A stretch of 64,000 nucleotides of DNA from an uncultured delta proteobacterium (GTDB taxonomy: Bacteria; Myxococcota_A; Polyangia; Fen-1088), in contig CAVTRY010000011.1 in NCBI GenBank assembly GCA_963737265.1, positions 832,001 to 896,000 of the forward strand. The letters run 5' to 3'. Below the pieces are notes generated by a model, which saw only the letters and a list, made by a program, of their open reading frames with translations, made no database searches and was not told where the DNA came from. Below, in pieces: positions 15,764 to 53,924 of the stretch (position 1 is the stretch's first letter; the number at the start of each line of letters is the position of its first letter). A program made the position numbers and the translations under genes.

Positions 15764-15791
15764 GAGATCCTCCTGAATGAACCTCTTCTCA

Positions 15792-15807
15792 AGCAACCTT
15801 GGTGCCA
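15792..15807 (-). promoter_or_regulatory. Sigma54 -24/-12 promoter of the Crp/Fnr gene
   Basis: Minus strand reads TGGCAC-caagg-TTGCT, an exact match to TGGCAC-N5-TTGC, 28 bp before the start codon. Confidence 0.75.
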
Positions 15808-15856
15808 ACGCAAAGGCGCGAAATTACGCCAAAACCATCAGAAGATGCACAGCGAC

Positions 15857-16224: not shown

Positions 16225-17985
16225 CTATCGCCTGCGGCGGCGCCCGACGAACCACGCCATGCCGACGAAGGCAAGAACATAGGACATCGGCGCTGAGGTT
16301 GATCGCGTTCCGAGGTTACACTTGCAGCCTAGGGAAGCGTCGCCTGCTTGAGACGGGCCGGCGTCGCCGACGGTGCCGCTCACCCCACCCGTGGACCCTC
16401 CTGAGGCTCCGATTGTCCCAGCCGTACCTTTCATCCCTCCCGCACTGGTCGCGCCACCTTCAACCGCGGCACCGCCGACCTCTCCGCCACCAATGCTCGC
16501 TACGCTTCCACCGCTACCCGCCATCGCGCCGCCAACGCTCGTCGATCCACCCCTGCCACCGCCGCCGCCGCTGCTCTGGACACCGCCCAAAGGCTTGGCA
16601 TCAGCGCCGTTACCGGCGTCCTTGTTGCTTGTACTTGTCGCTCCACCTGAAGCCTGGGCTCCGCCCGTCCCCGAGGTTCCGCCGGATCCCGTGGCACCGC
16701 CGGAACCGCCTGGTGGTGTCGAGGTGTCACCATAGAAACTAACCGGCCCGGTGTCGCCAGCGTTGACGGCCCATGAGCGTCGATCCCATGCAACCAGGGC
16801 GAGCAAGTGCGACGCGTACAGGCCCTGACCATCGTCGCTGGTGTCGGGCTCGGTCCATTTGGCCCCTGGAATTAGCACCGAGCTCACCGTGGCGTCGTCA
16901 TGGTCAGCGATTCCGAGCGCGGCGGCGCACGCCATCTTTGCGAAGAAGTTGCCGCCCGTCAGACCGGCCTGGAGAGCGGCCTTGTATTGTGTCTTGTCGG
17001 CTGCTGCTCCGATGACGTAGAGAGCGGCCTTGGCGATGGTGCCGAGGTCGCCGCCCGCGGTGACCTTGCTTTCGATGAAGGTGCGTGCGGTTGCATCCTC
17101 ACCCATGTAGCCGAGCATGAACAGGGCAAAACCGGCAAAACCGAGGTCGGCGTCGTTCACACCGCATTGCAGACGGGCGCGAAAGACGGCGGCGCGCGCA
17201 CCAAGCCCGGACTTGCGAGCGGCCAGCTCGCCGGCCGTCCACAAGTGCATATAGTCGTACTTTGTTCCCGAGCCTGATGTCGGCGTCTTGGTTGGGCAGG
17301 TGGTCGCGGTGGTGCTTGAACAATTGGTCGGGACGACCGCGTCACTACCCGTGTTCCAGGACGCGCGGCCCGCGCAATAGAGCTGCAGCAATTTGTCGAG
17401 CCCTGAAGCCTCGTTCTCGAAGTCCGCGATTGCGGAGTATTGAAGGGATCGTCCTTGCGCCAGGTCGCCGCCACAGCCTGGGTTGGCAGGGTTGTCCAAG
17501 CCGGGCGGCGGCGTCGTCGCCGGGATGAGTGTTCCCGCAGCCGTTTTCACCATGACTGCATTCGCGCCTTTGGTGGGATAGCAGTTGCTTTCGCCGCTAT
17601 TTCCAAACGAAACCAGAAAGCTGATGTCTTGAATGCTGACAGAGCCGCCACCAGCTTTCGCCACTGCCAAGTTGTACGTGGCCTTCTCACCGGGCAGGAG
17701 GGTACCGGGTGTCTTTTGGGTCTGGCGGGTGGCGGTCACCACGGTGCTACCGATCTTGGCCGTCAGAACGAAGTTGGGCAGCAGATAGCCCATGTTGTTC
17801 TGAACATAGACGGTCATGGTGGCCGTCCCGGAGGCCGGAACCGTCACGGTGTCGCTCGCCGGTCGGACTACGATGTTGTAGCTTGAGGCCCAAAGGTCAT
17901 CACACCAGTGAGCCTCAGCCTGAGCCGAGATGAGGAGGAGCGAAAGCGCTGCCCCGTAAAAAACGCTGCCCTTGCATAGAAGCAT
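16225..17985 (-). CDS. Secreted Cys-rich surface protein with Ig-like domain, Gly/Ser/Thr linker and MYXO-CTERM-like sorting signal
   Basis: Signal peptide ending AQAEA; C-terminal GCKCNLG...hydrophobic helix...RRRRR; SD AAGGGAG before ATG 17985. Confidence 0.8.
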   Translation of the reverse strand: MLLCKGSVFYGAALSLLLISAQAEAHWCDDLWASSYNIVVRPASDTVTVPASGTATMTVYVQNNMGYLLPNFVLTAKIGSTVVTATRQTQKTPGTLLPGEKATYNLAVAKAGGGSVSIQDISFLVSFGNSGESNCYPTKGANAVMVKTAAGTLIPATTPPPGLDNPANPGCGGDLAQGRSLQYSAIADFENEASGLDKLLQLYCAGRASWNTGSDAVVPTNCSSTTATTCPTKTPTSGSGTKYDYMHLWTAGELAARKSGLGARAAVFRARLQCGVNDADLGFAGFALFMLGYMGEDATARTFIESKVTAGGDLGTIAKAALYVIGAAADKTQYKAALQAGLTGGNFFAKMACAAALGIADHDDATVSSVLIPGAKWTEPDTSDDGQGLYASHLLALVAWDRRSWAVNAGDTGPVSFYGDTSTPPGGSGGATGSGGTSGTGGAQASGGATSTSNKDAGNGADAKPLGGVQSSGGGGGRGGSTSVGGAMAGSGGSVASIGGGEVGGAAVEGGATSAGGMKGTAGTIGASGGSTGGVSGTVGDAGPSQAGDASLGCKCNLGTRSTSAPMSYVLAFVGMAWFVGRRRRR

Positions 17986-18146
17986 GTGATCGTCTCCCTT
18001 GTTCGGCCGCGAACCGGCGCCATGATAGAAATCAAGACAAAGGTCAAGAGACTCGGAACCAGAACTACAGAGCGTTCCGAAGCCGTGCGGTATCTTCCAA
18101 GTTAGTGGTAGCTCGACCGAGTCTACCTTAAAAAGGTTTCCCATCA

Positions 18147-19235
18147 ATGTATAAACGGTCCATAATTCTTCAATTCGCCTTCGTGCTTGCGAGCGTCTGC
18201 CCACACTGGCGCACCTTTGCCTCGGGCGCGGACGCCGGGCTGGTCGAGGCTCGACCTGCGAGCACCGCGCTTCATCAGGCGGCTCGGCAAGGAAACACCT
18301 CGGAGGTTAGACGGCGCCTGGACGCTGGCGAGGAAGTCGATGTTCGCGACACTTGGGCGATGACTCCGCTGCACTACGCTGCCAGCCAAGGACGCCTGGA
18401 GGCCGCCAGCCTGCTGCTCGACCGCGGTGCCGATCCAAACGCGCGCGCCGGGGTGGGCATGACACCGCTTCACTTTGCCGCCATGTTGGGCCACGCGGAA
18501 ATGGCTGGGCTGCTGCTGCGGCGGGGCTCCCGAGTCGACGCTCGCACGAGATCAGGCATGACGGCCTTGCACCTGGCGGCAGACGACAAAGTGGTGGATG
18601 TGCTTGCGGCGGCCGGCGGCGACGTAAACGCTCTGTCCGACGGGGGACTGACGCCTCTTCACACAACCCGTCAGGGGATTGTGGCGCGCGCTCTCATCAG
18701 CCACAAAGCCGACCTGAGAATTCGAGATCCTCGGGGGCGTACCGCGATGGACCTGGCGGGCATCGAAACCCTGGAGCGTGTCGGTTTGTCCATCCACAGC
18801 GTCATGCTGGGAAGACTGCGCGGAATCGTAGGACAGATGCCCGTAACCCTGACCAACGTCTCCAGCCAGCCAATTCGAGCAGTGGCCCTGACGGCGCGCA
18901 GCCCGGCTTGCAACATCGAAGCCGAGCCACCTGTGATTGCCGAGCTGTTGCCGGGCCAAGACGAGAGAATTCTCCTGACCCTGACCCGCACGCCTTCTGT
19001 GCCCGAGGGGGAGTATCCAGTGTTCATCGCCATCAGTGCGGCGGGCAAGAAACTGGGCGATGTGGATCTCAAGGTCGACACTACGATGTCCGTGACGCTG
19101 GAGGATCGAGGGATGATCCGCCTGGCCAAGGGACAAATGCGCCCCGCACCGTCGCGCTGGTCCTACGTCGTCTACGCGATTGTTCCGCTGCTCGTGGTAG
19201 GCGCGTGGTTCTTCCTGCGCCGGCGTGCTGCCTAA
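18147..19235 (+). CDS. Exported ankyrin-repeat protein with Ig-like domain and C-terminal TM anchor
   Basis: Repeated TPLHxAA/TALH motifs; N-terminal hydrophobic signal; C-terminal TM plus RRR. Confidence 0.85.
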   Translation: MYKRSIILQFAFVLASVCPHWRTFASGADAGLVEARPASTALHQAARQGNTSEVRRRLDAGEEVDVRDTWAMTPLHYAASQGRLEAASLLLDRGADPNARAGVGMTPLHFAAMLGHAEMAGLLLRRGSRVDARTRSGMTALHLAADDKVVDVLAAAGGDVNALSDGGLTPLHTTRQGIVARALISHKADLRIRDPRGRTAMDLAGIETLERVGLSIHSVMLGRLRGIVGQMPVTLTNVSSQPIRAVALTARSPACNIEAEPPVIAELLPGQDERILLTLTRTPSVPEGEYPVFIAISAAGKKLGDVDLKVDTTMSVTLEDRGMIRLAKGQMRPAPSRWSYVVYAIVPLLVVGAWFFLRRRAA

Positions 19236-19236
19236 T

Positions 19237-20679
19237 TCAAGCCCGTACGCGAAGGCGCCTTCGTTCTCGCTGGGTGAGAAAAACGGCCAGGCCAGCGAAG
19301 GGGACGAGAACCATCGGGAATGACAGCCAGAACCACAAATTCGAGCGTAGCTCCGGCGCCGCGCGCTCGTCGGCGTCGAGGGGAAGTGCGCGCAAGGTTC
19401 CGTCGTAGCTACCGACGAAGGCCATCCATCGTCCGCGGATCCGGCCCGCCACCGGCGACGACCAATTGCTGTCGTCCATCCCGCCCACATTCCAAATCGG
19501 CCGGCCGGTGAAGGCGGTGAAGATGGGCGCGCCGCTGGCGAGGGCATTCACGTGCAGCATGTGGTCCCACGCCATGCTCAGCACCATGGGCTCGCGGCCC
19601 TGGGCGATCACGGCCACGGACGAAAAGACTCCGCCGCGAGCGGTATCGCGCCAGGCCAGCGCACCGTCGGTGGCGCCGAGGGCGTAGAGCTTTCTGTCAT
19701 AGGAGCCGACAAAGGCCCGTGGCTTGTCTCCGTCCAAAATCGCCGGCGATCCCGTGATCCGATCCCCGGTCCGAAATTGCCAGCGCTCGGTCCCAGTTAG
19801 GGCATCGAGCCCGCGAAGGGTTCCAAATTTCGAGCCGGTTACGAGCATTGGCCCCTGGCTGGTGGCCAGAAACGCTGGCGGGCTTCGCACGCAATCGAGC
19901 TCTGCCTTCTTCCACAGGACTTTGCCGTCGCTGGCGGAAAGAGCGTAGATGTTGCCGCTCGACGAACCGAGGAAGAGCATGCCCTTCCCCGCCACACGCG
20001 CGAAGATGGCGGCTGTCAGCTCGCCTTCGCCCAAATCGGAGCGCCAAACGGGATGGCCATCGTCGACTGCGAGCGCCACCACGCCGCTGCGTTGCATGCT
20101 GTTAGCCAGCGAGCGATCCCAGATCCAATAGGGCACGAAGACAGCGTCGTCCCGTTCGCCGGTTCCGCCTACGCAGGGAGCGGCCAGGCGCGCGCCGCCG
20201 AGCGTCGGCCGAAAATCCTCGACCGCGTGGACCCAAACCTGGCGCCCCAACACGGGATCGATGGCGTAGACAATTCGATCATTCGACGCCGCGAAAAGGA
20301 TCTGGCGTGCGCCGTCCTGGAAAAACACGGGCGCCGCGAACACCGGCCCGCCCGTGGTGAGCTTCCACAGCTCTTCGCCGGTGGCGGCGTTCAGGCAGTA
20401 GATCGTGTGATCGTAGTTGCCGGCTACGACGATGGGCTTGTCGCCCGCAACCCCGAGCGCCGGCGACGACCAGATAGTCAGCCCGGGCTCATAGCCCCAG
20501 ACGCGGCCGCTGCCGTCGAAGCTCCAGGCGCGAGGAGGCGTGTCCTGCCCTGCCACGAGCTCGATAGCCGCGCGGTTCTGGGCATCACAACGGCTCTGCG
20601 ACCAGACGTTACACTCTGTGGCATACGACGTCCCCGAAACCAGGAAGGCCGCGCTAAACGCCAGCGCGCGCAAACTCAT
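19237..20679 (-). CDS. PQQ-like/BamB-like beta-propeller protein with signal peptide and C-terminal TM anchor
   Basis: Repeated YALxAxxGxxxW blades, SSP motifs. Confidence 0.82.
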   Translation of the reverse strand: MSLRALAFSAAFLVSGTSYATECNVWSQSRCDAQNRAAIELVAGQDTPPRAWSFDGSGRVWGYEPGLTIWSSPALGVAGDKPIVVAGNYDHTIYCLNAATGEELWKLTTGGPVFAAPVFFQDGARQILFAASNDRIVYAIDPVLGRQVWVHAVEDFRPTLGGARLAAPCVGGTGERDDAVFVPYWIWDRSLANSMQRSGVVALAVDDGHPVWRSDLGEGELTAAIFARVAGKGMLFLGSSSGNIYALSASDGKVLWKKAELDCVRSPPAFLATSQGPMLVTGSKFGTLRGLDALTGTERWQFRTGDRITGSPAILDGDKPRAFVGSYDRKLYALGATDGALAWRDTARGGVFSSVAVIAQGREPMVLSMAWDHMLHVNALASGAPIFTAFTGRPIWNVGGMDDSNWSSPVAGRIRGRWMAFVGSYDGTLRALPLDADERAAPELRSNLWFWLSFPMVLVPFAGLAVFLTQRERRRLRVRA

Positions 20680-21728
20680 GCCGCCGGTCTCGCGGCCACT
20701 TTCGCGCTACCCGACTCCGCCTCGCGCTTCCCGCCCAACTGCCAGACATCCACGATTTTCAAAGCTGAGTTGGCGCAATGGTCGACGCACGCGTGGCAGA
20801 ATTGGCAATGGGCGACGCGAATCACGCCCTTGTCGATGGCGGCCACGTCGCACTTCGTGTCACATACCCCGCACTGATTGCAGCGGCCAGGCTCGAGGAG
20901 AATGCGCAAGCGGGAAAAGCGGTGGATGAATCCCATGAGGTAGCCCCACGGGCAAAGATAGCGGCACCACGAGCGCAGCACAAAAAGGCCTCCCACCAGA
21001 ACGACCAAGGTCGTAAGCGCGGACGCCGGATCGTCGCGCGCCGTGAATGCGAAGTGTACCGGCGAGGTCACGACCATGTGCGAGACCGCGGTGAGAAAAA
21101 TCGCCCCCAAACTGAACAGCCGAAGCTTCCGGCTGGGAACGTCGTCGACAATGCCCGACAGGACGAAGTAACAGATGAGAATCAGCATCGCGGCCCAGTG
21201 CAGGCTGGAATCCTCGACGAAAAGCTTCTTCTTCACGCCAAGCCAAACCAACAAGCTTACGAAGCCCAGGCAGACCGTGGCCAGCCCGATGAGCTCGCCG
21301 CGCGACAAGCCGCCCACACGACGAGGCAGACGCTTGCGTATCCACCCCGACACATCCTGCAGGCTACCGGTGGGACAGATCCAGCCGCAGAAGACCGGCC
21401 CGTGCAGCAAGGTCACGGCAATGATGACGATGGGTAGCGCCAGCCAATAGAATGACTCGCCATAGGCCGAGCCCACCAGGGTCAAACCGTACAGCCCGTT
21501 GCGAATCATGCCGAAGACGCCGAGGCACGAATACACGACACAGTAGAACACCAGAAAAGAAGCCAATTGCACCATTCGGCGTATCCACTGGCGGTGGCGA
21601 GTTACGTTGCTTATCACAACGACGACGAGAAATAGAAAAAGCAACGAAGCCATCTCCACGCTTGTGCCGTCGAGGGACAGAAACGGAACGTTGAAGATCT
21701 TGCCGAGCGGGCTGCGTTCTGGCTGCAT
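20676..21728 (-). CDS. NapH/MauN-like membrane 4Fe-4S protein
   Basis: FCGWICPTG and WCRYLCPWG motifs, two CxxCxxCxxxC clusters, multiple TM helices. Confidence 0.85.
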   Translation of the reverse strand: MQPERSPLGKIFNVPFLSLDGTSVEMASLLFLFLVVVVISNVTRHRQWIRRMVQLASFLVFYCVVYSCLGVFGMIRNGLYGLTLVGSAYGESFYWLALPIVIIAVTLLHGPVFCGWICPTGSLQDVSGWIRKRLPRRVGGLSRGELIGLATVCLGFVSLLVWLGVKKKLFVEDSSLHWAAMLILICYFVLSGIVDDVPSRKLRLFSLGAIFLTAVSHMVVTSPVHFAFTARDDPASALTTLVVLVGGLFVLRSWCRYLCPWGYLMGFIHRFSRLRILLEPGRCNQCGVCDTKCDVAAIDKGVIRVAHCQFCHACVDHCANSALKIVDVWQLGGKREAESGSAKVAARPAA

Positions 21729-21735
21729 GGGCTCC

Positions 21736-22521
21736 CTAGTTTGACTCGGCGCTGGTGCACTCGCCCGGTTTTTCGGCGCATGCCTGAGCACACGATGGAA
21801 GATTGGCGACGACTTCCAGGGGCAAACCAAGAAAACGCGCGACGAATGGGCAGCGGGGCTTGCCCTGCACCTCGACCGCTGGCCCACGCTGCACGATGCG
21901 CCCTCCCAGCATGACGGCAATGTGATCGCCGAGCGCGGCAGCTTCTTCCCGACTGTGCGTCACGTGCAACGTGGTCAGGCCCAATTCCTTGTGAACGCGC
22001 GCCAGCTCAACCTGCAATTCCAGCCGCGTATTGTGGTCGAGGGCGCTCATGGGCTCGTCGAGCAGCAACAAGTCCGGTCGGATTGCTAGGGCTCGCGCAA
22101 TAGCGACCCGCTGCGCTTCGCCGCCGCTGAGGGTAGCAACGGGTCGATCCACGACCGACTGTAATCCCAGGCGTTCGACCAAATCGTCCACCGTGCGCTG
22201 TACCTCGTCGCGCGGGATCTTGCGGGCGTCCAGGCCGTAGGCAATGTTGCCCCGAACGGATTTATGTGGAAAAAGCGCCGATTGCTGAAATACCAGTCCC
22301 ATATTGCGACGCTCCGGCGGCGTGGCGCGCAAATCGCGATTGGCGACCAGTATCTGTCCTTCCTCGGGCGTGAAGAAACCGGCGATGGTCTGTAGCAGCA
22401 CGGATTTGCCGCAGCCGCTGGGCCCGAGAATGACCCAGTACTCGCCCTTTTCAATCCGCAACGATAAGTCGCGAAGCGCAAACGAACCGAAGCGGCAATA
22501 CAGGTGTGAAAGTTCGATCAT
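21736..22521 (-). CDS. wtpC: Tungstate/molybdate-type ABC ATPase (WtpC/ModC-like); no TOBE domain, Cys-rich tail
   Basis: GPSGCGKS, LSGGEAQRVAIARA, LLDEP; operon with wtpA/wtpB-like genes. Confidence 0.8.
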   Translation of the reverse strand: MIELSHLYCRFGSFALRDLSLRIEKGEYWVILGPSGCGKSVLLQTIAGFFTPEEGQILVANRDLRATPPERRNMGLVFQQSALFPHKSVRGNIAYGLDARKIPRDEVQRTVDDLVERLGLQSVVDRPVATLSGGEAQRVAIARALAIRPDLLLLDEPMSALDHNTRLELQVELARVHKELGLTTLHVTHSREEAAALGDHIAVMLGGRIVQRGPAVEVQGKPRCPFVARFLGLPLEVVANLPSCAQACAEKPGECTSAESN

Positions 22522-23750
22522 GGTCGCCGCTCCGGTCGCGAGTGGCGTAAGGCGAACGGTAAGAGCGTTTGCCCGAACTGCAGCATCACGAACACCCACA
22601 AACAGATGATGAGCAGGAGAATGGCGATGGGCCGGCTTTCCGAGGCGCCCGCGCGCAAGAACTCGGTGTGCACGAGCACGGGCGCGGTCACGGGCGAGCT
22701 GGCGAAGAGGACGATGCAGCCAAACTCGCTGACCGCGCGCGCCCATGCCAGCGTCGCACCGACGAGAATGCCCCGCGAGGCCAATGGCAACGAAATGCGA
22801 GCGAAAGTCGCCGCGGGCGAAGCGCCCAAGCTGCGCGAGGCCAGCTCGTACTGAAGCGGCACCGACTCGAATGCGGTCATGGCTGTCTTGACTAGAAACG
22901 GTGCCGCGACGAAAACCTGCGCAATCACGATGCCGACGAGCGAACCCGAGATGGGCAGCCCGAGGCTTTCAAGCACACCTCCGAGCACGCTTCCCGGACC
23001 CAAAAGAACAATCAGCGCGATACCGGCGACAGACTGCGGCACGAGGATGGGCACGTCCACCATGGATTCGACCCAGCGCTTGCCTGGGAAATCGACGCGA
23101 GCCAGTGCATAGGCAAGAGGCACCGCCCACAGCGCCAACACCACCGTCGCCACCGTCGAGGTGAGGAGGCTGAGCCAGATGGCGCTCGCCACATCCCCGC
23201 GCATGAAGGTGTGCCACAGCGTTTGCAGCGAGTCCTGCATGCCCAGGTGGATGAGGGGAAAAAGAACCACCGCGAGGGCCACCAGACCGCCGCACAGGCA
23301 GAGGCGCGCGAACAACGACGCCTTGCCGCGCGTCCGCCAATAGACCGCATAAATCAGGGACAGAGGAATGAAAGTCTCGAAGGCGAATGGCTGCAAGACG
23401 ACGAAGCAGACGACGAAGATAGCGAAGAATCCCAACAGGACAGGCGTGCCGAAGCAGCCCGCGAGGGCGACGACGAGCAGAATAAAAAGTGGCGCCTTGC
23501 CCAGCAAAACCAACACGAGGAGAAAGAGCGCCGTGTATCCAGCTACGAAGAGAGCGACGGTGCGCGCCGACCGCCGGCGCAGCACCGTCGCCGCTGCCGA
23601 AAAGACGAAGAGGTTGGTGAAGAAAAGCGCGAGGTTCATTCCCGGCGAAAACGGCGGGTTCGGGACCATGCCCATTCCGAGGTGGATCGCCGCCAGCACA
23701 AGCAACGCGCCCAAACTTTGTTTCCAGGTCTGCTTCACGGCGCGCCCCAC
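22518..23750 (-). CDS. wtpB: Tungstate/molybdate ABC permease (WtpB/ModB-like) with extra N-terminal TM domain
   Basis: PLAYALAR.DFPGK, DVPILVPQSVAGIAL, EAA-like YELASRSLGA, WARAVSEFG. Confidence 0.8.
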   Translation of the reverse strand: MGRAVKQTWKQSLGALLVLAAIHLGMGMVPNPPFSPGMNLALFFTNLFVFSAAATVLRRRSARTVALFVAGYTALFLLVLVLLGKAPLFILLVVALAGCFGTPVLLGFFAIFVVCFVVLQPFAFETFIPLSLIYAVYWRTRGKASLFARLCLCGGLVALAVVLFPLIHLGMQDSLQTLWHTFMRGDVASAIWLSLLTSTVATVVLALWAVPLAYALARVDFPGKRWVESMVDVPILVPQSVAGIALIVLLGPGSVLGGVLESLGLPISGSLVGIVIAQVFVAAPFLVKTAMTAFESVPLQYELASRSLGASPAATFARISLPLASRGILVGATLAWARAVSEFGCIVLFASSPVTAPVLVHTEFLRAGASESRPIAILLLIICLWVFVMLQFGQTLLPFALRHSRPERRP

Positions 23751-24709: not shown

Positions 24710-24728
24710 GCAGTCTCCTATCACGGAC

Positions 24729-27700: not shown

Positions 27701-28986
27701 AAGTCGCGAATCCCGCTGGCGTCGAGTTGGCCGTAGTTCAAGTAGATCGAGCCATTGAGCGTCCGGCCCTCCGACATCTGCTGTCCAAAGCCAAAGCCAC
27801 CCGTGGCATTGGCGTAGCTGTCCGCGGAGTCCCGCGTCCCCGTCGGACGCAAACCCGGGCCCAACTTGACATTGTTGTAAGGCTGTTCGCTGTCCAGTTG
27901 ACCGTAGATGCGGAAGGTCGTCTTCGACGCGTTCGATACGGTCACAGCCAAATTGCGGTCAGCCCACATGTCGACCGAGATGTTGTACATAACGGCCGCG
28001 TCCGGAAACATGACGGTGACGAACCCGCCGTAGTTCAGAGTTCCAGTCGATCCCTCCTGTCGGTTGAGCCCCTGCGCGGGCGTAAAGCGACTGATGGCCG
28101 TGGTCAAGCGGTTGAATTCGAGGATCTCCTTGTCAGTGGTAATGAAGACGTAGGCGCTCGTTGGCTCGACGCCGACGATCATCTTGCTACCCAGCGCCGA
28201 CTGCTGCGGAAAACGCCTTATTGTGTCGCTGGCGTCTTCGAATAGGAAGAGGCCGTTGTCTGTGCCCAGCCACAGATCCGAACCATCTACCGTCACCACC
28301 CGAATCTGCTGGGCCCCCATACTGGCCAGGGAGAAGTTGTTGAACACGTGCTGTACGACCCGGAAGTGCGAAAGCCCTACGTCGGTTCGGCAAAACAAGT
28401 CAGTGCCCACCTGGATGAGCTCGGCCACGTCGCCCGACGCCAAGCCATCGGCTTCACCATATGTGCGGAATCCGTCGACGTCGGGGTTGTACACGGCAAT
28501 GCCGGCGCGGGTGGCGAACCAGACCTGGCGGCCGATGGTGATCGCATACGTGATAGTCTTATTGGGCAAGCCGTTGGACTCGTCGTACACCTTGATGGTT
28601 CGGTCCGTCTTACGATAGCGCACCAACCCTTTGTTGGTCCCGAACCAAACATACTGGTCGTCGAATGCTACCGTGTTGACCCTTTGGCTGGGCAGACCGT
28701 CGTCCATCGTCAGCCGAATTGAACGCTGGCTGCCGGTTTCGAAACGGACCACCCCGTCGTCGGTCGCGAGCCACAGGATGGTCTGATCGACGACCATCTT
28801 GTTGATGGTCGCGCCGAACGCCGTCACAGTCCAGCGGTCGAGAGTTTGGTAGATGAGCTTATCGTCCTGCGCGATCCAAACGCCGTTGACAGGATCGACC
28901 GCTATCTCGGGTGTACGGGCACGCGCCGACGTTGCACACAGCAACCCCGCCGCGGCCACGACAAAGGCCGCTCGTTTCATGCGCAC
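24729..28986 (-). CDS. Very large outer-membrane protein: N-terminal beta-propeller, SprA-like segment, internal DUF6599-like domain, beta-barrel; 1-nt frameshift near 25,000
   Basis: Signal peptide; propeller repeats (LWLAT..G, DGLPS); ERIYVDGELLNNGVDYTIVYTAGQLLF; the main ORF stops at 24964 but the +1 frame continues with amphipathic strands to ...RLYFTMNL* at 24729. Confidence 0.72.
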
Positions 28987-28990
28987 GGGC

Positions 28991-29899
28991 CTACGCGTTG
29001 ACCTTCTTGATCTTCATCCTGCCGACATCGGTCTCGCCGAGCCCGGCCTTGCCCGCGAACTCGATGTGCCGCGCGTCCGCTGGGGTCATGTTCTTGTTGT
29101 TGAACTTGGCCACGGTCAAGCCGTAGGCATCTACGCACACGATGTTGCGGCCAGCCACCAGGCGGCCGGGCGTCGCGGTGTCGCCGGGGCCCGCGGGACC
29201 GTTCGTGAGCAGCGCGCGGGTCGCGTCGAGAATGGTCAATTGGGGCTTGATGACCCGGCCCAGGTCGGCCACCGCCTGATGTAGTTCCATCGCGGTGTGA
29301 AAGGCCTGCCGGTCGTAGATGAGGCCCATGTGGTTCTTGAGCCCGAAGGAAACCCCGGCCTGGTAGTGCGCCTTGGCGGCCGGAACATTGATGAAGACGT
29401 CGGCGGAAAGAATCGCCTTGGCGACATCGACCGACTTCAAGACCACGCCGCCTTTCACGTCGACCTTCTGAAAGTCGCTCGCGTCCTTCAAGAGTTTCAC
29501 CTTGGCGGCGGGCAGCGCCGCCAGCGCGGCGGTGAGACCGCAGCGTTCCAGACATTTGTCGCCCTTGGCCTGCGGGAACTCGAGAATCAAGACCTCCTTG
29601 GCCTTCGCATCGAGACAAGCCTTGACGATTGCGGCCACCGTCTCGGGATGCGTCGTGGTGCCCCAGGCGGGCGGATTGGCAAACGCCGCATTCGGCTTAA
29701 TGACGACAAAATCACCCTTCTTTACGAATTTGGCGATGCCGCCCAAGGCCGCCAGCGCGGCAGCCACCATCTTGGCGGGGTCGCTCCCAGAAACGTCGAC
29801 TATGTCGTGATCCGCGCCAGCGAAGACTCGGCCGTATTTCAGGGCTGCTGCCGCTGCGATCGATCCACTTACGAAACTGCGTCGAGAGATGACTTTCAT
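28991..29899 (-). CDS. DUF362-family protein with Tat signal
   Basis: SRRSFV twin-arginine signal; VIKPN, TTHPE, INVPAAKAH...FGLKNHMG. Confidence 0.85.
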   Translation of the reverse strand: MKVISRRSFVSGSIAAAAALKYGRVFAGADHDIVDVSGSDPAKMVAAALAALGGIAKFVKKGDFVVIKPNAAFANPPAWGTTTHPETVAAIVKACLDAKAKEVLILEFPQAKGDKCLERCGLTAALAALPAAKVKLLKDASDFQKVDVKGGVVLKSVDVAKAILSADVFINVPAAKAHYQAGVSFGLKNHMGLIYDRQAFHTAMELHQAVADLGRVIKPQLTILDATRALLTNGPAGPGDTATPGRLVAGRNIVCVDAYGLTVAKFNNKNMTPADARHIEFAGKAGLGETDVGRMKIKKVNA

Positions 29900-30061
29900 G
29901 CTGGGGTTCCTTTTACATCCGTTTGTGACTGCACCGACTCCTGTCGTCGATAACCCACAGATTCCGCACCAACCGCCAGAGATTCTACCAGAAGACGGCG
30001 ATCTATTATGCTATTGTTCACCGTGAATTCTGAATTTCGACTTACGCCGGAGGCGAGGGTC

Positions 30062-31192
30062 ATGGCGACCAAACAAGGTAACACGCGACGAGAAATACTG
30101 ATAGGCGCAGCCAGCGCAGCCGCAGCGGCTTCGCTGAGTCACCTGGCTGGCTGCTTTCCCAGCGTCGGCGGCTCGTGGCCGGCCTGCGCTTCGCTCGAAG
30201 GAGCCTCCGGCGTTGATGGGGCACAGCCAAGCCCTGTTGCAGGAGCATCGACCGTAGTCACTGTCCAAAACCCGGACAGCCTGGACGCCACCTATAAAAG
30301 CTCCGGGCAGGCTCAGATCGATGCCATCCAGGGGATGGTCGACACCGCCCTTTCGACCTTGGCCGGGGGCGCTGACAATCCTTGGCCGATCCTTTTGCCC
30401 ACCTACGTCTCAGGCACGCGCATCGGGCTCAAGGTAAACTGTCTAAATTCATACCTTCCCACGTCCCCGGCAATCGTGCGCGCTATCATCCAAAGTCTGA
30501 TTACCCGTCTCGGTGTCTCACCCTCGAACATCACGGTCTGGGACCGCCGCCTCGACGAATTGACGAACGCTGGAAAGTATTCCGCTGACGATTTGCAGGG
30601 CGCGACTCTCGTCGGAACCGTTGCCTCTACTACCGATGCGAGTGGGCCTGGATATACCCTCCCAGCCTGCTCCCTGGTCGGGGGCGGCGCGCCACGCCTA
30701 TCGAGAATTGTCACTGACCAGACTGATTTGACCATCAATTGTCCGGTTCTTAAGTCCCACGGAGTCGCAGGCGTAACCGCCGGGCTCAAGAACATATTCG
30801 GAATCATCGACATCCCCGGCAGCTACCACGATAACCTAGCCACCGCGTTGCCAGTCCTTTACGCGCTGCCACAGATCCGCAACAGCATCAAGTTGACGAT
30901 CGTGGACGCGCTGCGAGCTGTGACGACCGGAGACACGTCGGACATGTGGGACTGTGCACCCGGACGCATATTCGCCTCCCTCGATACCCTTGCCCTCGAC
31001 CACTATGCCGTGGACTTGGTCAACCAACTGCGCGCCAATCGTAAAAAAGGCCCCATCACCGGCCCCGTCTTGGGCTGGCTTGACAATGCCTACCAACTTG
31101 GACTCGGGACGAAGGACTACAGTTTGATTGAATGCCCATCGACGTCAGGTGGGAACAGCGGATCCCAACTTGACGGCTCCCAGTCCGGTTGA
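30062..31192 (+). CDS. DUF362-family Tat lipoprotein
   Basis: TRREIL twin-arginine plus LAGC lipobox; LKVNC, INCPVLKSH.VAGVTAGLKNIFG. Confidence 0.8.
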   Translation: MATKQGNTRREILIGAASAAAAASLSHLAGCFPSVGGSWPACASLEGASGVDGAQPSPVAGASTVVTVQNPDSLDATYKSSGQAQIDAIQGMVDTALSTLAGGADNPWPILLPTYVSGTRIGLKVNCLNSYLPTSPAIVRAIIQSLITRLGVSPSNITVWDRRLDELTNAGKYSADDLQGATLVGTVASTTDASGPGYTLPACSLVGGGAPRLSRIVTDQTDLTINCPVLKSHGVAGVTAGLKNIFGIIDIPGSYHDNLATALPVLYALPQIRNSIKLTIVDALRAVTTGDTSDMWDCAPGRIFASLDTLALDHYAVDLVNQLRANRKKGPITGPVLGWLDNAYQLGLGTKDYSLIECPSTSGGNSGSQLDGSQSG

Positions 31193-31249
31193 CTCGCCGC
31201 GATCCGCGACGTCGCCAAGATGCGAGGCGGCGTCGCCCGAATCCTTGCG

Positions 31250-31915
31250 CTACATCTTCGCCGCGACCGCTTCGGCAAATCTCATGGCTTCGGCCTGACT
31301 GACCGGATCAGACGGAGTGAACGAGGCATCGTACGACGGGCTCAAGCGGACCTCGACGTAGTACGCGCCCTTGTCGAAATTGATCCACCAATCGGTGCCG
31401 CTGTCCGTGATGCGAGACTCGTTGCCCACGACTGGCGACGTGGCCGCCCAGGTGTTTGACGTGTAGAGAGTATCCGTGCTCGTCGCTGCAGTGAGTGATG
31501 CGTAGAGCGCCGAGGCCTGTGCCGCGGAGGACATCTGGATGATGTACAACTTCAGCATGTATTTGGTGGGTGGAACGAGCGTGGTGTTGACGTAGTTCTG
31601 CCAGGCAAGGACGACCGGCGAGAACTGCGCGTTAAAGAAGGCCTCGGAGCCGCCGTCGATAAGGCCACTCGCCGTCGTGGCCGACGTGGCCGTCGCAGCC
31701 ACCACCCCCACGGTCTTCGAATTGTCCGGATCCACGGTCCAGCCCGACACCGCGCTGGCTTGAGGCACCAGGTCCAACACGGACCCCGAACCGCCGCCCG
31801 CCCCGCCGCCGCCCGCCCCACCAGCGCCTCCGCTAGGCGTGCTGCTGCCACAGCCGACGAGAGCGCCACCTAAACCAAGCGCGGTCCATAGAACCAAAGA
31901 GCTGAGACGAATCAT
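31250..31915 (-). CDS. Lipoprotein with DUF6599-like domain
   Basis: Lipobox LVGC, Gly-rich linker, LIDGGSEAF...LYIIQMSSAAQA..LY...FDKGAYYVEV. Confidence 0.7.
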   Translation of the reverse strand: MIRLSSLVLWTALGLGGALVGCGSSTPSGGAGGAGGGGAGGGSGSVLDLVPQASAVSGWTVDPDNSKTVGVVAATATSATTASGLIDGGSEAFFNAQFSPVVLAWQNYVNTTLVPPTKYMLKLYIIQMSSAAQASALYASLTAATSTDTLYTSNTWAATSPVVGNESRITDSGTDWWINFDKGAYYVEVRLSPSYDASFTPSDPVSQAEAMRFAEAVAAKM

Positions 31916-32092
31916 CGCTTTCTCCTTCGCAAATGCCAACGAGCCAAAGGCCGAGAACATCCTTGGCCTCGTGGTCCGAATATCCACAGCGTCCGATTAT
32001 CCACACCTACTGGTGTCACCGCAATTCCGAAATTGCGCTGCGATCGCCCTTGATTCGCGGGCGGTCATTGACATACGCTTTGGCGCAAGCTC

Positions 32093-32635
32093 GTGCGTAT
32101 CCCTCTTCTCGTTGTTCTGTCACTGATTCCTCCGACCCTGATCGGCTCCCTGGTGTGGAATGGCAGACGGGTTCTGCCCGCCGAACACGCGACAGGCCAA
32201 GCACGGTCGACCGGTCAGGAGGCGGACGCGGCGTTGAAGTCTCTGTTCGAAACGCCGCTTACCGGCGCCAAGGTCAAGGAGAAGGTCGCGCTTTACGACG
32301 AAAAGGGCCTGTTCGATTACATCGACGGCGCCGCGCCGATTTTCATCGAACGCCACTTCCGCAAGCTGGCCGCGACGGAAATGGCGACGCCCGAAGGTAG
32401 CGACCTGGTGTGCGACGTCTACGATATGGGCAGCGGCGAGAACGCCCTATCCATCTTCACCGCTGAAAAATCGGCCAACGCCAAGGTTGTCGAAGGATGG
32501 CCCGAGGCCATCGCCGGCTCGATGTCTTTCGTGTTCCATAACGGCCGGTATTACACGAAAATGACGGCATTTGATGCCAAGGCCGAAGCTGCCCTGCCCT
32601 TGGTGGCGCGAGCGCTCAAGGAGAAGATGAAATGA
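32093..32635 (+). CDS. DUF6599-family protein with N-terminal TM/signal
   Basis: LFDYIDGAAPIF...DVYDMGSGENALSIF...FHNGRYYTKM. Confidence 0.78.
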   Translation: MRIPLLVVLSLIPPTLIGSLVWNGRRVLPAEHATGQARSTGQEADAALKSLFETPLTGAKVKEKVALYDEKGLFDYIDGAAPIFIERHFRKLAATEMATPEGSDLVCDVYDMGSGENALSIFTAEKSANAKVVEGWPEAIAGSMSFVFHNGRYYTKMTAFDAKAEAALPLVARALKEKMK

Positions 32636-33678
32636 GTGACCGCGATCTGCCGCCAAGCAAGGATGTCGTTCCCGAGGCGCGGCTGCGCGCGGGCGCGACG
32701 AAAAACGAAAAGGCTCCCGAGGAAATGGATCGGCGTGCGCTCTTGCGCGTGGGCATGACCACGGCCATCGCGGGGGGTGCCGTGGCGCTCGGCCTGACCC
32801 TGCGGGCGCGCGACGGTCACGAGAAAAACAGGGTTCTTCCCAAGCTCAGAGATCACCGCATCGCCAAGATTCAAGGTGCCGTGGAAATGGCCATCGCACG
32901 CGGTTCGGATCCCACGCAAAACGTCCGGCGCGCCGTCGAGGCCATGGGCGGCATGGGCCGCTTCGTGCAGCGCGGCGAACGGGTGGTCGTCAAACCCAAC
33001 ATCGGATGGAATCGCCTGCCCGAGCAGGCCGCCAACACCAATCCCGATGTTGTGGCCGAGGTGGTCCGGTTGGTGGCGGCCGCTGGCGCGTCGAAGATTT
33101 GGGTTACCGATGCCTCGGTGAACACGGCCGAGCAGTGCTTCGCTCGGTCTGGCATCGAGAAGGCCGCCAAGGCCGCGGGCGCCACGGTCGTGCGGCCCGA
33201 CACCACCGCGTTTCGCGAGGTCGACGTCTCGGGCAAATTGCTTCGCGTCGCCGATATCCTGTTTCCCTTCGTCGAGGCCGACCGCGTGATCAACGTGCCG
33301 GTCGTCAAGCAGCACGGGCTTTCGGGCGCCACCATGGCGATGAAGAACTGGTACGGCATGCTGGGCGGACAGCGCGTGAAGCTGCACCAAAACATCCATC
33401 TCTCCATCGTCGACCTGGCGAGCATGATCAAACCCACGCTCACCATCATGGATGCCACGCGCATTTTGCTCGCCAACGGTCCGACCGGCGGCAGCCTCTC
33501 CGATGTGAAAATGATGAACACCATCGCCGTCAGCAGCGACGAAGTCGCGCTCGACGCCTTCGGCGCCAGCCTACTGGGACTTTCGCCCAGCGACCTCGGC
33601 TTTATCGTCGAGGGCGCGAAGGCGGGCCTTGGCACGCCCGTTTGGAAGAACCTCAAGACCGAAGAATTGGGAGGATAG
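32632..33678 (+). CDS. DUF362-family protein with Tat signal
   Basis: MDRRALL twin-arginine; VVVKPNIGW, NTNPDVV, INVPVVKQH...MAMKNWYG. Confidence 0.87.
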   Translation: MSDRDLPPSKDVVPEARLRAGATKNEKAPEEMDRRALLRVGMTTAIAGGAVALGLTLRARDGHEKNRVLPKLRDHRIAKIQGAVEMAIARGSDPTQNVRRAVEAMGGMGRFVQRGERVVVKPNIGWNRLPEQAANTNPDVVAEVVRLVAAAGASKIWVTDASVNTAEQCFARSGIEKAAKAAGATVVRPDTTAFREVDVSGKLLRVADILFPFVEADRVINVPVVKQHGLSGATMAMKNWYGMLGGQRVKLHQNIHLSIVDLASMIKPTLTIMDATRILLANGPTGGSLSDVKMMNTIAVSSDEVALDAFGASLLGLSPSDLGFIVEGAKAGLGTPVWKNLKTEELGG

Positions 33679-33680
33679 GC

Positions 33681-35189
33681 ATGTTTCTGTGGTTGCGCCG
33701 CTCCTACCAAGTCGTTTTTCTCGGTTTTTTTCTGTTCCTGATTTTCGCCGCCACCTCGCTCTACATCCGCGGCTACGACGTTCAGTGGTTCCTCGAGCTC
33801 GATCCACTGGTCGCGCTCACCACCGCGCTTTCATCCCACGTTCTTCACCACGCGTTGTGCTGGTCGCTGCCGCTCATCGTTCTCACGCTGGTTTTTGGGC
33901 GCTTCTTTTGTAGCTGGATGTGTCCCATGGGCGTGCTCCATCACGTCCTTGGCTACCTCGGTCGCAAGCGCAAGGTCCTTGATCGCGTAAAGCAGAACAA
34001 CCCGAGACCTTCGCGCAAGGTCAAATACGCCATACTTGCCGTCATGCTCGGGCTGGCGGCCGCTGGCAGCACGCAGATCGGGCTGCTCGACCCCATCGCG
34101 TCTACCTGGCGCGGTCTTTCCGTTTCGGTGCTGCCCGCGGCCAGCAATACCGCCTTCGGGCTTTACCAGGGCGAGCGCCACTTCCAGTGGGGCACGTTCG
34201 TCGCCATCGTATTCTTCGGCGCGCTGGCGCTGAATTTCGTCTATCCGCGCTTCTACTGCCGCGTTCTGTGCCCACTCGGCGCCTTCCTCGGCGTTCTGTC
34301 GAAATTCTCGCTCTTCCGCATCAGCAAGGATCCCAAGATCTGCAACGAATGCGAGGTGTGCGGGGCCGACTGCCAAGGGGCCGCCGATCCGCAGGGCACC
34401 GTGATGGCGACCGAGTGCATGGTCTGCCTCAACTGCACCAAGGGCTGCAAACGCGGTGGCCTCGCCTATCGCTTCTTGCCTCCGGTCACGCTGTCCACGA
34501 CCGAAACCGATCTCTCGCGGCGCAAGTGGCTTGGCGCCGGCGTGGCTGGCATGGCAGCGGTTCCGCTCATGCGCGCATCGGACGGTGTGGATCCGCGCCC
34601 CAACCCGGCCCGCATTCGCCCGCCCGGCGCGCTCGACGAGCCCGATTTCCTCGCCAAATGTCTCAAGTGCGACGCCTGCATGAAGGTCTGCCCTACCAGC
34701 GCTTTGCAGCCGGCGCTTCACGAGGCCGGCCTCGAAGGCTTCTGGTCCCCAATTCTTGTCGCGCGCCTGGGCTACTGCGAACACAGCTGCACCCTGTGCG
34801 GCCAAGTTTGCCCCACCGGCGCTATCAAACATCTGACGGTCGCGGAAAAGGTGGGCGACATGCCGGCCAAGCCGCCGGTGCGCATCGGCTCCGCTTGCTT
34901 CGACAAGGGACGCTGCCTGCCTTGGGGATACGAGACCGAATGCATCGTGTGCGAAGAGGTCTGCCCCACCTCGCCCAAGGCCATCTACTTCAAAGTCGAA
35001 ACCATCACGGCGCGCGACGGCAGCCAGAAGACCCTGAAATTTCCTCACGTCGACCTCGACCATTGCACCGGATGCGGCACGTGTGAAAATCGCTGTCCAG
35101 TCGTGGATCGCGCCGGCGTACGCGTCAGCGCGGCCAACGAAAGCCGCACATCCAAGAGCAGCATGTCCCTGACCGGCGGCAAGATTTAG
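33681..35189 (+). CDS. Membrane polyferredoxin (NapH/MauN-NapG/MauM fusion) with internal twin-arginine motif
   Basis: FCSWMCP, YCRVLCP, about six 4Fe-4S Cys motifs, LSRRKWL before the last TM, IRPPGA; start ATG 33681. Confidence 0.88.
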   Translation: MFLWLRRSYQVVFLGFFLFLIFAATSLYIRGYDVQWFLELDPLVALTTALSSHVLHHALCWSLPLIVLTLVFGRFFCSWMCPMGVLHHVLGYLGRKRKVLDRVKQNNPRPSRKVKYAILAVMLGLAAAGSTQIGLLDPIASTWRGLSVSVLPAASNTAFGLYQGERHFQWGTFVAIVFFGALALNFVYPRFYCRVLCPLGAFLGVLSKFSLFRISKDPKICNECEVCGADCQGAADPQGTVMATECMVCLNCTKGCKRGGLAYRFLPPVTLSTTETDLSRRKWLGAGVAGMAAVPLMRASDGVDPRPNPARIRPPGALDEPDFLAKCLKCDACMKVCPTSALQPALHEAGLEGFWSPILVARLGYCEHSCTLCGQVCPTGAIKHLTVAEKVGDMPAKPPVRIGSACFDKGRCLPWGYETECIVCEEVCPTSPKAIYFKVETITARDGSQKTLKFPHVDLDHCTGCGTCENRCPVVDRAGVRVSAANESRTSKSSMSLTGGKI

Positions 35190-35216
35190 ATTGCCAGAAG
35201 GCCCGACGCCTTCGTG

Positions 35217-35453
35217 CTACCGTTTCGTGTGGCTACCGTCGCAAAACGGCTTGTTGCGCGACTGCTTGCAGCCGCACAGAACCGCTTGACCAATGTCGGT
35301 CTGGGCGATCTTGACGGGAGAAAAAAGCGTCCCCCGATGGGAGCCATCGCAGAAGGGCTGGCGCGCCGATCGGCCGCAAGCACACCAATAGTAGTCCCCG
35401 CGTTCCAGCTTGACGACGTAGGGTTGCTTTCGCGCACCGACCGGGTCACTCAT
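35217..35453 (-). CDS. Two-CDGSH iron-sulfur protein (MiNT-like)
   Basis: WCACGRSARQPFCDGSH and LCGCKQSRNKPFCDGSH. Confidence 0.9.
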   Translation of the reverse strand: MSDPVGARKQPYVVKLERGDYYWCACGRSARQPFCDGSHRGTLFSPVKIAQTDIGQAVLCGCKQSRNKPFCDGSHTKR

Positions 35454-35553
35454 CGCAACAGCTCCCGTCGAGTATGGCAGGTCGCCTACCGAGAACAACT
35501 CGAATTGGTCGACGACATCGCATTCACGATGTAGATTCCAGGGCAAGCGGGAC

Positions 35554-38552: not shown

Positions 38553-38687
38553 GGGCATTGACCGGGGTGTGAAGGAGAAGACCAAAGGCGACCAGGTGGC
38601 GACGACTGTGCTTGTTCACTACCAGGGGATTGTGCTGGGCAAAGGGGCCAGCATCGGCCGATTCGAGGTCATGGCCCGTCGGCGACG

Positions 38688-39770: not shown

Positions 39771-39804
39771 GTCGTTCGCTCCTTACAAATCGCTGTTGGT
39801 CGAT

Positions 39805-41079: not shown

Positions 41080-41115
41080 ACCTCAGCCCCTCCCGTCAGA
41101 CGCCAACAGCAAAAA

Positions 41116-42531: not shown

Positions 42532-42539
42532 TCTTCCTT

Positions 42540-43373: not shown

Positions 43374-43410
43374 CGTTACTCCTGCTTGTCTTGCCGTCTG
43401 CCGGTCCGCA

Positions 43411-53907: not shown

Positions 53908-53924
53908 GGTTGACCTCGGTGACT

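Follow-up and report, generated by a model that had tools for sequence, protein, structure and literature searches.

Gene content of the locus

The stretch of DNA considered here, hereafter the window, comprises 64,000 nucleotides (nts) of an uncultured Polyangia-type myxobacterium from peat soil (assembly GCA_963737265.1, contig CAVTRY010000011.1, positions 832,001-896,000), with a G+C content of 60-66%. Its open reading frames (ORFs) at 16225..35189, labeled A to N (Table 1), encode three DUF362 proteins with twin-arginine translocation (Tat) leaders, three DUF6599 units, two membrane polyferredoxins, a WtpABC-like ATP-binding cassette (ABC) transporter, a beta-propeller protein, and a giant protein of the outer membrane. 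A first-pass annotation, made from the sequence alone, had proposed this content, and comparisons with Pfam and NCBIfam and by hhalign recovered all of it in place. The tight coupling that it had described for the minus-strand genes is likewise borne out: start and stop codons overlap as ATGA at F/E, as they do at L/M and M/N, and gaps of 0-8 nts separate the genes elsewhere in the minus-strand run.

Table 1. Genes A to N and neighboring features, in window positions.
Feature	Product	Coordinates	Strand	Evidence and remarks
A	Secreted protein, no known family	16225..18204	-	No Pfam/NCBIfam match; conserved beside B/C
B	Ankyrin-repeat protein	18147..19235	+	Pfam Ank; signal peptide, C-terminal membrane helix; conserved beside C
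C	PQQ_2/BamB-like beta-propeller	19237..20679	-	Pfam PQQ_2 E 3e-31; signal peptide, C-terminal membrane anchor
D	NapH-type membrane polyferredoxin, no NapG part	20676..21728	-	Pfam Fer4_5; NCBIfam NapH/MauN E 4e-17, below cut-off
E	WtpC-like ABC ATPase	21736..22521	-	NCBIfam WtpC 282 bits (cut-off 440)
F	WtpB-like ABC permease	22518..23750	-	NCBIfam WtpB 213.1 bits (cut-off 340)
G	Lipoprotein solute-binding protein, archaeal ModA/WtpA type	23735..24724	-	NCBIfam WtpA 239.5 bits (cut-off 355), 222.9 bits (cut-off 242.75)
H	Giant outer-membrane protein, ~1,420 residues	24729..28986	-	Signal peptide; DUF6599 domain at residues 592-714
I	Tat-signal DUF362	28991..29899	-	Pfam DUF362 E 1.5e-44, 152.9 bits; leader SRRSFV; 4 nts upstream of H
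J	DUF362, Tat leader and lipobox	30008..31192	+	Pfam DUF362 E 8.8e-16, 59.0 bits; TRREIL then LAGC
K	Lipoprotein, divergent DUF6599 homolog	31250..31987	-	LVGC lipobox; divergently oriented beside J
L	DUF6599 protein, N-terminal membrane anchor	32093..32635	+	Pfam DUF6599 63.7 bits
M	Tat-signal DUF362	32632..33678	+	Pfam DUF362 E 6.5e-51, 173.7 bits; leader DRRALL
N	Polytopic polyferredoxin, NapH-NapG fusion	33675..35189	+	Pfam Fer4_5 and other Fer4 families; NCBIfam NapG, NapH
Lipid-transport operon	MlaD, ABC ATPase, MlaE	11568..14770	-	Upstream of the Crp-family regulator
Regulator	Crp family	15005..15808		Conserved beside the A-B-C end in several relatives
CDGSH gene	Small CDGSH-type iron-sulfur protein	35217..35555	-	Directly after N, opposite strand
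Repair fusion	O6-methylguanine-DNA methyltransferase DNA-binding domain with HhH-GPD glycosylase domain	35554..36720	+	Ogt-AlkA type
Sugar-acid cluster	Hexuronate-type genes	36975..46339
LarA homolog	Lar_N protein, possibly a sugar-acid epimerase	39805..41079	-	Within the sugar-acid cluster
Island	Apparent mobile/defense genes	52374..61411

The three DUF362 proteins I, J, and M all score above the Pfam gathering cut-off (PF04015, 24 bits), and a twin-arginine leader is present in each. For DUF6599 (PF20244, 27 bits) the domain inside H also passes, with 30.4 bits, and it is related to L at the level of BLASTP (E 2e-8). K is more remote. It has no Pfam or NCBIfam match, and BLASTP comparisons of K with L and with the H domain returned no match (E 1.5-2), such that the relation is visible by profile comparison alone: an alignment of 17 K orthologs matched the L family in hhalign with 96.6% probability (E 6e-10, 153 columns), and K shares the motif L-IDG-x-A/E-x-F. 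Since the K family aligns to DUF6599 by profile, the count of three DUF6599 units stands.

Several gene models required correction. The listed ORF of D (20676-21920, minus strand) begins too early; its real start is near 21728, and the ortholog alignment begins at residue 65. Similarly, the long ORF of E (21736-22746, minus strand) has its real start at 22521, the Met of MIELSH, where it overlaps the F stop, and the WtpC match begins at residue 76 of the long form. The likely start of K is the inner Met of MIRLSS. F has an N-terminal membrane extension of ~150 residues that is conserved among its orthologs, and A ends in a Cys, a hydrophobic stretch, and RRRRR, as read from the sequence, a tail that we call MYXO-CTERM-like, a name that no tool assigned. 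C scored far under the cut-offs of the NCBIfam families of pyrroloquinoline quinone (PQQ) dehydrogenases. The most consequential correction concerns H, whose ORF in the window ends early at 24964, due to one extra base at 25016 in a run of T. Homologs of H extend ~100 residues past this point and end in LYFTMNL, and the same tail is present in another frame of the window; without the extra base, the frame continues to a stop at 24729-24731, 4 nts before the start of G. Contigs from four of four public sequencing runs lack the base, two of them otherwise identical to the window and two from relatives with many other differences. The break in H is therefore an assembly error and not a broken gene, and the extra base is possibly a homopolymer error from long reads.

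Conservation and co-occurrence

Among 41 relatives, the full-length giant H is present in 12/12 genomes of the same genus and in one genome of another family; the remaining genera of its own family yielded none. Eight fetched loci, seven from the same genus and one from the other family, retain the gene order N-M-L-K-J-I-H-G-F-E-D-C over the extent of their contigs. Orthologs of the propeller protein C (E <= 1e-30) occur in exactly those 14 of the 41 relatives that have the giant, and in 0/27 of the others. Scanning 185,579 species genomes with an alignment of the giant returned 53 loci, of which 47 hold the giant and six only a free DUF6599 paralog; all 53 come from metagenome-assembled genomes (MAGs), mostly labeled Myxococcota or delta proteobacteria. 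Since these genomes are related by descent, the counts that follow overstate the independence of the observations.

Neighbors of the giant were counted over the 47 giant loci, taking for each gene only loci with enough flank. I stands beside the giant in 39/40, J near it in 34/37, L together with M in 25/31, and N in 20/25; the corresponding values are 21/38 for G, 18/35 for the G-F-E block, and 12/26 for D with C. The sole exception for I, locus L070, holds a J-like DUF362 in that position. I is the most constant companion of the barrel and is retained even beside giants that are only 27-29% identical (L073, L074, and L080), where an ABC-2-type ATPase and permease follow the giant in place of G-F-E. 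These three I-H pairs are also flanked by alanine-dehydrogenase-like and saccharopine-dehydrogenase-like genes. The suggestion that the barrel is dedicated to this system agrees well with the near-constant presence of a DUF362 gene beside it.

The transporter genes behave differently from I. In one subclade, in which H is ~50% identical, rubrerythrin and unrelated genes lie downstream of H, and a G ortholog (50-65% identity) was found elsewhere in the genome in 5/5 cases tested. Four such regions were fetched: G-F-E-D-C was intact in all four, accompanied by B in three and by A in two, and in one genome the G-C block lay only ~12 kb from H. This block often terminates in B. Thus, the transporter and the barrel, whose association the first-pass annotation had proposed as the check on its reading, do co-occur, adjacently in many genomes and at a distance in the rubrerythrin subclade, with the propeller pattern identical to that of the barrel among the 41 relatives. 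The same annotation had drawn a single operon from 29899 to 19237. That this run is a conserved unit and not a chance neighborhood holds; its unity does not, as it is better described as the fusion, in this lineage, of two conserved modules. Judged from the sequences, these modules, (N-M-L, K, J, I-H) and (G-F-E-D-C-B-A), appear always to be co-resident and to be fused in many lineages.

The barrel, the DUF362-DUF6599 pairs, and their candidate cofactor

A search of 5.8 billion proteins with H gave 105 matches, 96 of them family members of ~780-1,455 residues; those with organism names all come from Polyangia, "Deltaproteobacteria" or "Pseudomonadota" MAGs and are annotated as hypothetical or DUF6599 proteins. 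The structure was modeled on a 1,163-residue homolog that covers all of H except most of the propeller, using an alignment of the 96 family sequences. The model is confident (predicted local distance difference test [pLDDT] 86.7, predicted template modeling score [pTM] 0.86) and shows a barrel of ~36-40 long strands, an approximate count, into which a small beta domain and the alpha/beta DUF6599 domain are inserted. Its best Foldseek match is SprA (E 6e-10), which is also top by VIA, followed by the Deinococcus SlpA complex, MtrB (6r2q_B, E 5e-6), LptD, ushers, and TonB receptors. What the first-pass annotation had offered as a guess, an outer-membrane barrel, has thereby become a confident model. 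The small inserted domain of H matches the SprA family locally, at SprA positions 594-654, with 24.1 bits in the protein search and 26.4 bits in the genome search (E about 1e-6 to 5e-6), and is the sole SprA-family match in the genome; these scores fall well short of the 200-bit cut-off of the SprA family (TIGR04189). By its model, H is a predicted outer-membrane barrel of the SprA size class, and by score it is not a member of the SprA family. At its N terminus are weak Pfam matches to Reg_prop propellers; Foldseek also gave matches to the sensor domains of Bacteroides hybrid two-component proteins (E 5e-5, probability 0.85).

The DUF6599 domain extends well beyond this locus. It was found in 49/301 Myxococcota genomes and in 0/14 control genomes, and its protein-atlas clusters also draw from Acidobacteriota and Thermodesulfobacteriota; a word-based homolog search with L returned close orthologs only. 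In a sample of 20 DUF6599 loci from many Myxococcota families, where tblastn positions were used in some very GC-rich loci (e.g., L009, L010, and L025) in which gene calling based on GC3 failed, DUF362 adjoins DUF6599 in 13 (in L015 only by a weak tblastn match), and an N-type polyferredoxin continues the pair in seven, making it the usual third gene. Both the DUF6599-DUF362 partnership and the association of a NapH/NapG-type polyferredoxin with DUF362, each proposed at first from this locus only, are thus recurrent. Two further contexts were seen in the sample. An aldo/keto reductase gene follows the triad in 5/7 loci, with twin-arginine leaders throughout (L009, L011, L012, L024, and L025; also L022), and export would be odd for an NAD(P)H enzyme. 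In five loci of one family (L013, L014, L018, L019, and L020), a DUF6599 protein of ~400 residues lies beside pilin-like (N_methyl) and PilY1-like genes, with an acyl-CoA dehydrogenase gene in 4/5; these pilin-context loci have no adjacent DUF362 and represent a second context for the domain.

The sequences of I and L matched no PDB chain, and the L model found no PDB match in Foldseek at E <= 0.001. A complex of the pair was predicted from residues 60-348 of M and residues 40-180 of L, with a separate alignment for each protein, in three runs and with three controls. The complex scored 0.82 (0.81, 0.83, and 0.82 in the individual runs) as against 0.00 for the best control, a mark reached by 116/157 solved complexes and 2/215 mismatched pairs, a calibration that is approximate here since custom alignments were used. 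Contact agreement among the runs was at least 98%, and the pLDDT of the partner was at least 91. In the predicted interface, residues 71-83 of L, which bear the family signature GLFDYIDGAAPIF, sit on M residues 163-164, 228-231, 248-255, and 281-291, a surface that includes the nearly invariant H228, the invariant H252, and the N282-G287 loop. L would therefore bind M in a manner that caps the conserved DUF362 pocket; the model supports this binding but does not prove it. The signature loop, L-Y/F-x-x-I-D-G-x-A-P (LYxxIDGxAPKYI), is almost invariant across the giants' DUF6599 domains and recognizable in K. By homology, M-L may be joined by J-K and I-H as three cognate pairs.

The product of N, the third gene of the triad, contains a pair of CxxCP motifs as well as a 2x[4Fe-4S] motif on the cytoplasmic side. 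Just before its last membrane helix is an internal twin-arginine sequence, SRRKWLG; positive charges come next, and then four Cys clusters that face outward. The stretch reads SRRKWLGAGVAGMAAVPLMRA, then R/P-rich residues, then the Cys clusters. NCBIfam places NapH on residues 4-265 (E 3e-20) and NapG on residues 279-487 (E 4e-26), both below their cut-offs. A fusion of NapH and NapG of this kind, termed the dual Sec/Tat polytopic polyferredoxin (PFD), is inserted jointly by Sec and Tat, and NapGH is a quinol dehydrogenase, according to the accessible part of PMC5449189, which in that part assigns PFD neither a partner nor a function.

What the DUF362 proteins may carry in their pocket is a question on which their clan offers guidance. 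DUF362 is a large family in bacteria and archaea, for which no function was found in the literature searched, where DUF6599 was not found mentioned either. DUF362 and the LarA superfamily belong to the same Pfam clan, CL0471, with DUF362 used as an outgroup to LarA, and LarA1 binds its nickel-pincer cofactor through K184, R75, and His200 and uses His108 and His174 as its catalytic bases (PMC11770544, accessible part). Across 30 exported DUF362 proteins, K121, N123, G174, K226, K238, N239, G242, H252, D274, D308, and G334 are invariant and H228 is nearly so (M numbering), with no conserved Cys. H228 and K238 are 10 residues apart and K238 and H252 14; in the family of the window's LarA homolog, the corresponding His-Lys-His residues, which from the sequences are probably equivalent to His174, Lys184, and His200 of LarA1, are spaced by 10 and 16. 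When DUF362 alignments were compared by hhalign with the window's LarA homolog and with a 21-sequence LarA alignment, H228/K238/H252 of M aligned to H162/K172/H188 of the homolog as the best local segment in both comparisons, at non-significant E values of 0.65 and 0.34. As the alignments are non-significant, the His/Lys/His match rests on clan membership and spacing. None of I, J, and M matched Lar_N (PF09861) at E <= 0.01.

Of the corresponding biosynthesis genes, larB (276.2 bits) and larC (203.6 and 133.2 bits) are adjacent in the genome and above their cut-offs. Because the genome also has two LarA homologs, it alone cannot discriminate between the possible clients. A survey covered 151 genomes of the phylum of at least 90% completeness, with a strong DUF362 defined by E <= 1e-30. 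LarC was present in 65/69 genomes with strong DUF362, in 15/18 with DUF362 and no LarA, and in 19/63 with neither. One family includes four genomes with LarC and a DUF6599-DUF362 triad but without LarA. The use of LarC without LarA as a unique pointer to DUF362 was weakened, with 19/34 such genomes having no strong DUF362.

Interpretation and relation to known systems

The explanation that we tentatively prefer is that two conserved modules of uncultured Polyangia-type Myxococcota, fused in this lineage, build an undescribed envelope system in which DUF362-DUF6599 pairs occupy three stations, with a pincer-type cofactor, wiring to quinones, and anion import. In the first module, each of the three Tat-exported DUF362 proteins would have a DUF6599 unit of its own as partner, capping the conserved pocket. 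M, the membrane-anchored L, and the polyferredoxin N would form an inner-membrane station; the lipoproteins J and K a second; and I, together with the DUF6599 domain inside the SprA-like barrel H, a third. The DUF362 proteins may receive their cofactor in the cytoplasm, most likely a nickel-pincer nucleotide made by LarB/LarC/LarE, and this proposed cytoplasmic loading would account for their use of the Tat pathway; a pincer-type cofactor is the preferred, if unproven, explanation of the Tat signals. Held at envelope stations by their DUF6599 partners, the enzymes would perform a hydride-type oxidation or reduction of a substrate that the barrel admits or presents, and N would pass electrons between the inner-membrane station and the quinone pool. 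The second module, comprising the WtpABC-like importer with its apparently altered anion site, the second NapH-type polyferredoxin, the propeller, the ankyrin protein, and the surface-anchored protein, may import a small anion linked to the DUF362 chemistry.

Several observations weigh against this explanation. The docking of I on H is extrapolated by homology from the M-L prediction. The transporter block is missing from the flanks of 17/35 giant loci, and the most distant giants carry the ABC-2-type transporter. As to the cofactor assignment, the non-significant DUF362-LarA profile alignments have probabilities below 1%, and the genome's own two LarA homologs suffice to explain LarB and LarC. 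In the survey of LarC, the Fisher p of 8e-5 is overstated by the kinship of the genomes; no LarC was detected in 4/69 genomes with strong DUF362 (G051, G061, G123, and G169), nor in the control Bacteroides thetaiotaomicron; and the 19 genomes that have LarC with neither LarA nor strong DUF362 indicate that LarC has other clients. A bolder form of the proposal is more speculative and stands on the doubtful side. In it, DUF362 proteins would be nickel-pincer (or pincer-like) enzymes that are loaded in the cytoplasm, exported folded by Tat, and active outside the cytoplasm, the first of their kind; each would be completed by a dedicated DUF6599 subunit and converted from racemase to net oxidoreductase through its connection to a polyferredoxin and the quinone pool, and one copy would be docked in a half-size SprA-type barrel to reach a substrate outside.

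A different prospect is that H is a secretion or display pore akin to the type 9 translocon SprA, with I and perhaps J as its cargo, the DUF6599 domain as cargo receptor, and the enzymes at work on the cell surface. This is unlikely, though the best placed of the alternatives. A search for GldM (TIGR03517), uninformative since it was silent in 14/14 control genomes, likewise gave no match in this genome of 99.5% completeness, and it did not extend to PorV, GldK/L/N, or the C-terminal domain (CTD) families.

A second alternative, decidedly less likely, would have the locus serve polysaccharide or sugar-acid utilization: the barrel, which bears a glycan-sensor-like propeller, imports bulky glycans, the periplasmic DUF362 proteins, being kin to 2-hydroxy-acid racemases, epimerize or oxidize sugar acids, and the ABC importer brings in the resulting anion. 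According to the accessible part of PMC11770544, enzymes of the LarA superfamily have 2-hydroxy acids as substrates, and DUF362-CBM9-dockerin fusions have been reported (PMC5742341). A hexuronate cluster with a LarA homolog begins 1.8 kb beyond N, glycoside-hydrolase-like genes and Tat-signal aldo/keto reductases flank the triad in other Myxococcota, and the Reg_prop and two-component sensor matches of the H propeller point in the same direction. These propeller matches are weak, however, and even within the genus the hexuronate cluster does not stay with the locus: its gene for a major facilitator superfamily (MFS) transporter was found in none of the 53 related loci (0/53). Moreover, the ABC system is of the oxyanion type and not the sugar type, and the pairing with polyferredoxins favors net redox chemistry over epimerization.

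The first-pass annotation had itself leaned toward tungsten or molybdenum, proposing that the DUF362 proteins might need, or act upon, a metal oxyanion such as tungstate or molybdate, supplied or recovered by the WtpABC-like transporter. In its favor, among all NCBIfam families WtpA, WtpB, and WtpC lie nearest to G, F, and E; G is homologous to archaeal ModA/WtpA structures (3k6u, 3cfz, 2onk, and 3cg1, E 1e-43 to 1e-51); the transporter block accompanies the barrel in all genomes checked; and Tat export suits metal-cofactor enzymes. All three transporter scores nevertheless lie below the equivalog cut-offs, and the motif presumed to bind the anion is changed. The accessible part of PMC10221389 describes P. 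furiosus WtpA as binding tungstate through Asp160 and Glu218, with a change of Asp160 abolishing selectivity; from the chain numbering, Asp160 would lie in the NPNDDP motif. This motif, NPNDDPxGY in three archaeal structures, is DPDTAPIGY in G and DP(D/E/N)TAPxGY in the 13 G orthologs that match the pattern; one more reads DPSLAP, seven rows do not match, and the Glu of DE(A/T)EL is kept. Because G is without the archaeal acidic motif, the tungsten or molybdenum link is weak. Two stronger ModA-type binding proteins and the only two Molybdopterin-family matches of the genome lie elsewhere in it, the DUF362 proteins have neither the features of pterin enzymes nor a conserved Cys, and the DUF362-DUF6599-polyferredoxin triad is widespread without such a transporter. 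A dependence on tungstate or molybdate is hence improbable, and a role of the transporter in their import is possible but not indicated. Least probable of all, DUF6599 might serve not as a working subunit but as an inhibitor or a holding chaperone, obstructing the active site of DUF362 until the enzyme has been delivered; the locus would then contain three enzyme-inhibitor pairs and not three stations.

The flanks of the locus hold further genes. The hexuronate cluster comprises the MFS transporter, a PfkB kinase, the LarA homolog, a 6-phosphogluconate-dehydrogenase-like gene, a short-chain dehydrogenase/reductase, a UxaE-like epimerase, and a UxaC glucuronate isomerase; as a part of the system it was dropped, on the count of its MFS gene given above. 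A plus-strand ORF at 35214-35534 is probably no gene; the CDGSH gene overlaps it on the opposite strand. Farther downstream, genes for a phage-type integrase, for a protein resembling family A DNA polymerases, and for an HEPN(Swt1-like)-DUF499 protein of 1,111 residues give the appearance of a mobile or defense island. On the other side, the sequence of the Crp-family regulator contains no FNR-type Cys cluster, so that oxygen sensing is not inferred for it.

The locus offers several handles on the DUF362 family: DUF6599 as an obligate partner with a predicted interface at the pocket, a polyferredoxin of a type already investigated for its membrane biogenesis, a candidate cofactor whose biosynthesis genes are known, and a dedicated barrel. 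If the cofactor proposal is correct, the reach of nickel-pincer chemistry would widen from cytoplasmic racemases to respiratory-type extracytoplasmic enzymes, and if the pincer and barrel proposals both hold, the locus would represent a new kind of trans-envelope redox system. H, which includes a built-in receptor domain, is a well-conserved addition from outside Bacteroidota to the few very large single-chain outer-membrane barrels known, and bears on how folded proteins or bulky substrates pass the outer membrane in the absence of a type 9 motor. Judged from record titles and run labels, leaving aside the run rows with small word shares (X4, X6-X20), the host organisms often occur in metagenomes of peat, fen, and groundwater, and the substrate may matter for carbon or metal turnover there.

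The first-pass annotation knew of no described system of this composition, and no published description of it was found in the literature searched; the closest comparisons are with systems that share one part or another. As in the MtrCAB porin-cytochrome conduits, a large outer-membrane barrel lies beside exported redox-type proteins and inner-membrane electron carriers. Unlike MtrCAB, however, this locus is without cytochromes, its exported proteins are without conserved Cys or heme motifs, and no electron path across the periplasm is evident. The 36-strand type 9 translocon SprA/Sov (PDB 6H3I, 6H3J, 8GL6, and 8GL8) is, like H, a giant single-chain barrel, and the structural match to it spans almost the whole modeled barrel. 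H is nonetheless shorter, with ~1,420 residues as compared to ~2,000-2,300 in SprA PDB chains, adds an N-terminal propeller and the inserted DUF6599 domain, and has Tat-exported DUF362 proteins as neighbors, while SprA operates with CTD-tagged cargo and PorV.

Among transporters, WtpABC (P. furiosus WtpA; A. fulgidus ModA/WtpA, PDB 2ONK) is the best family match of G, F, and E, and the homology of G is clear. The present block departs from it in the replacement of the acidic NDD by (D/E/N)TA, in the extra ~150-residue N-terminal membrane domain of its permease, and in its operonic association with a NapH-like protein and a propeller. With the LarA superfamily (DUF2088, Lar_N), the DUF362 proteins share the clan CL0471 and, by spacing, a candidate His-x9-Lys...His pattern; LarB and LarC are encoded in the genome, and the presence of DUF362 tracks that of LarC across 151 genomes. 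The DUF362 proteins differ in being Tat-exported and paired with iron-sulfur proteins and DUF6599, a setting in which the accessible part of PMC11770544 describes no LarA enzyme. The nearest counterpart of N is PFD itself (Q1NSB0, delta proteobacterium MLMS-1; Tooke et al., 2017, PMC5449189), and N appears from its sequence to possess every architectural feature that the accessible part of that paper sets out for it. NapGH modules, whether in Nap, clade II Nos, or MauMN, feed Tat-exported periplasmic enzymes, and N is likewise coupled translationally to the Tat-exported M; its client, in contrast to theirs, is a DUF362/DUF6599 pair in place of a nitrate or nitrous-oxide reductase or another enzyme of known function.

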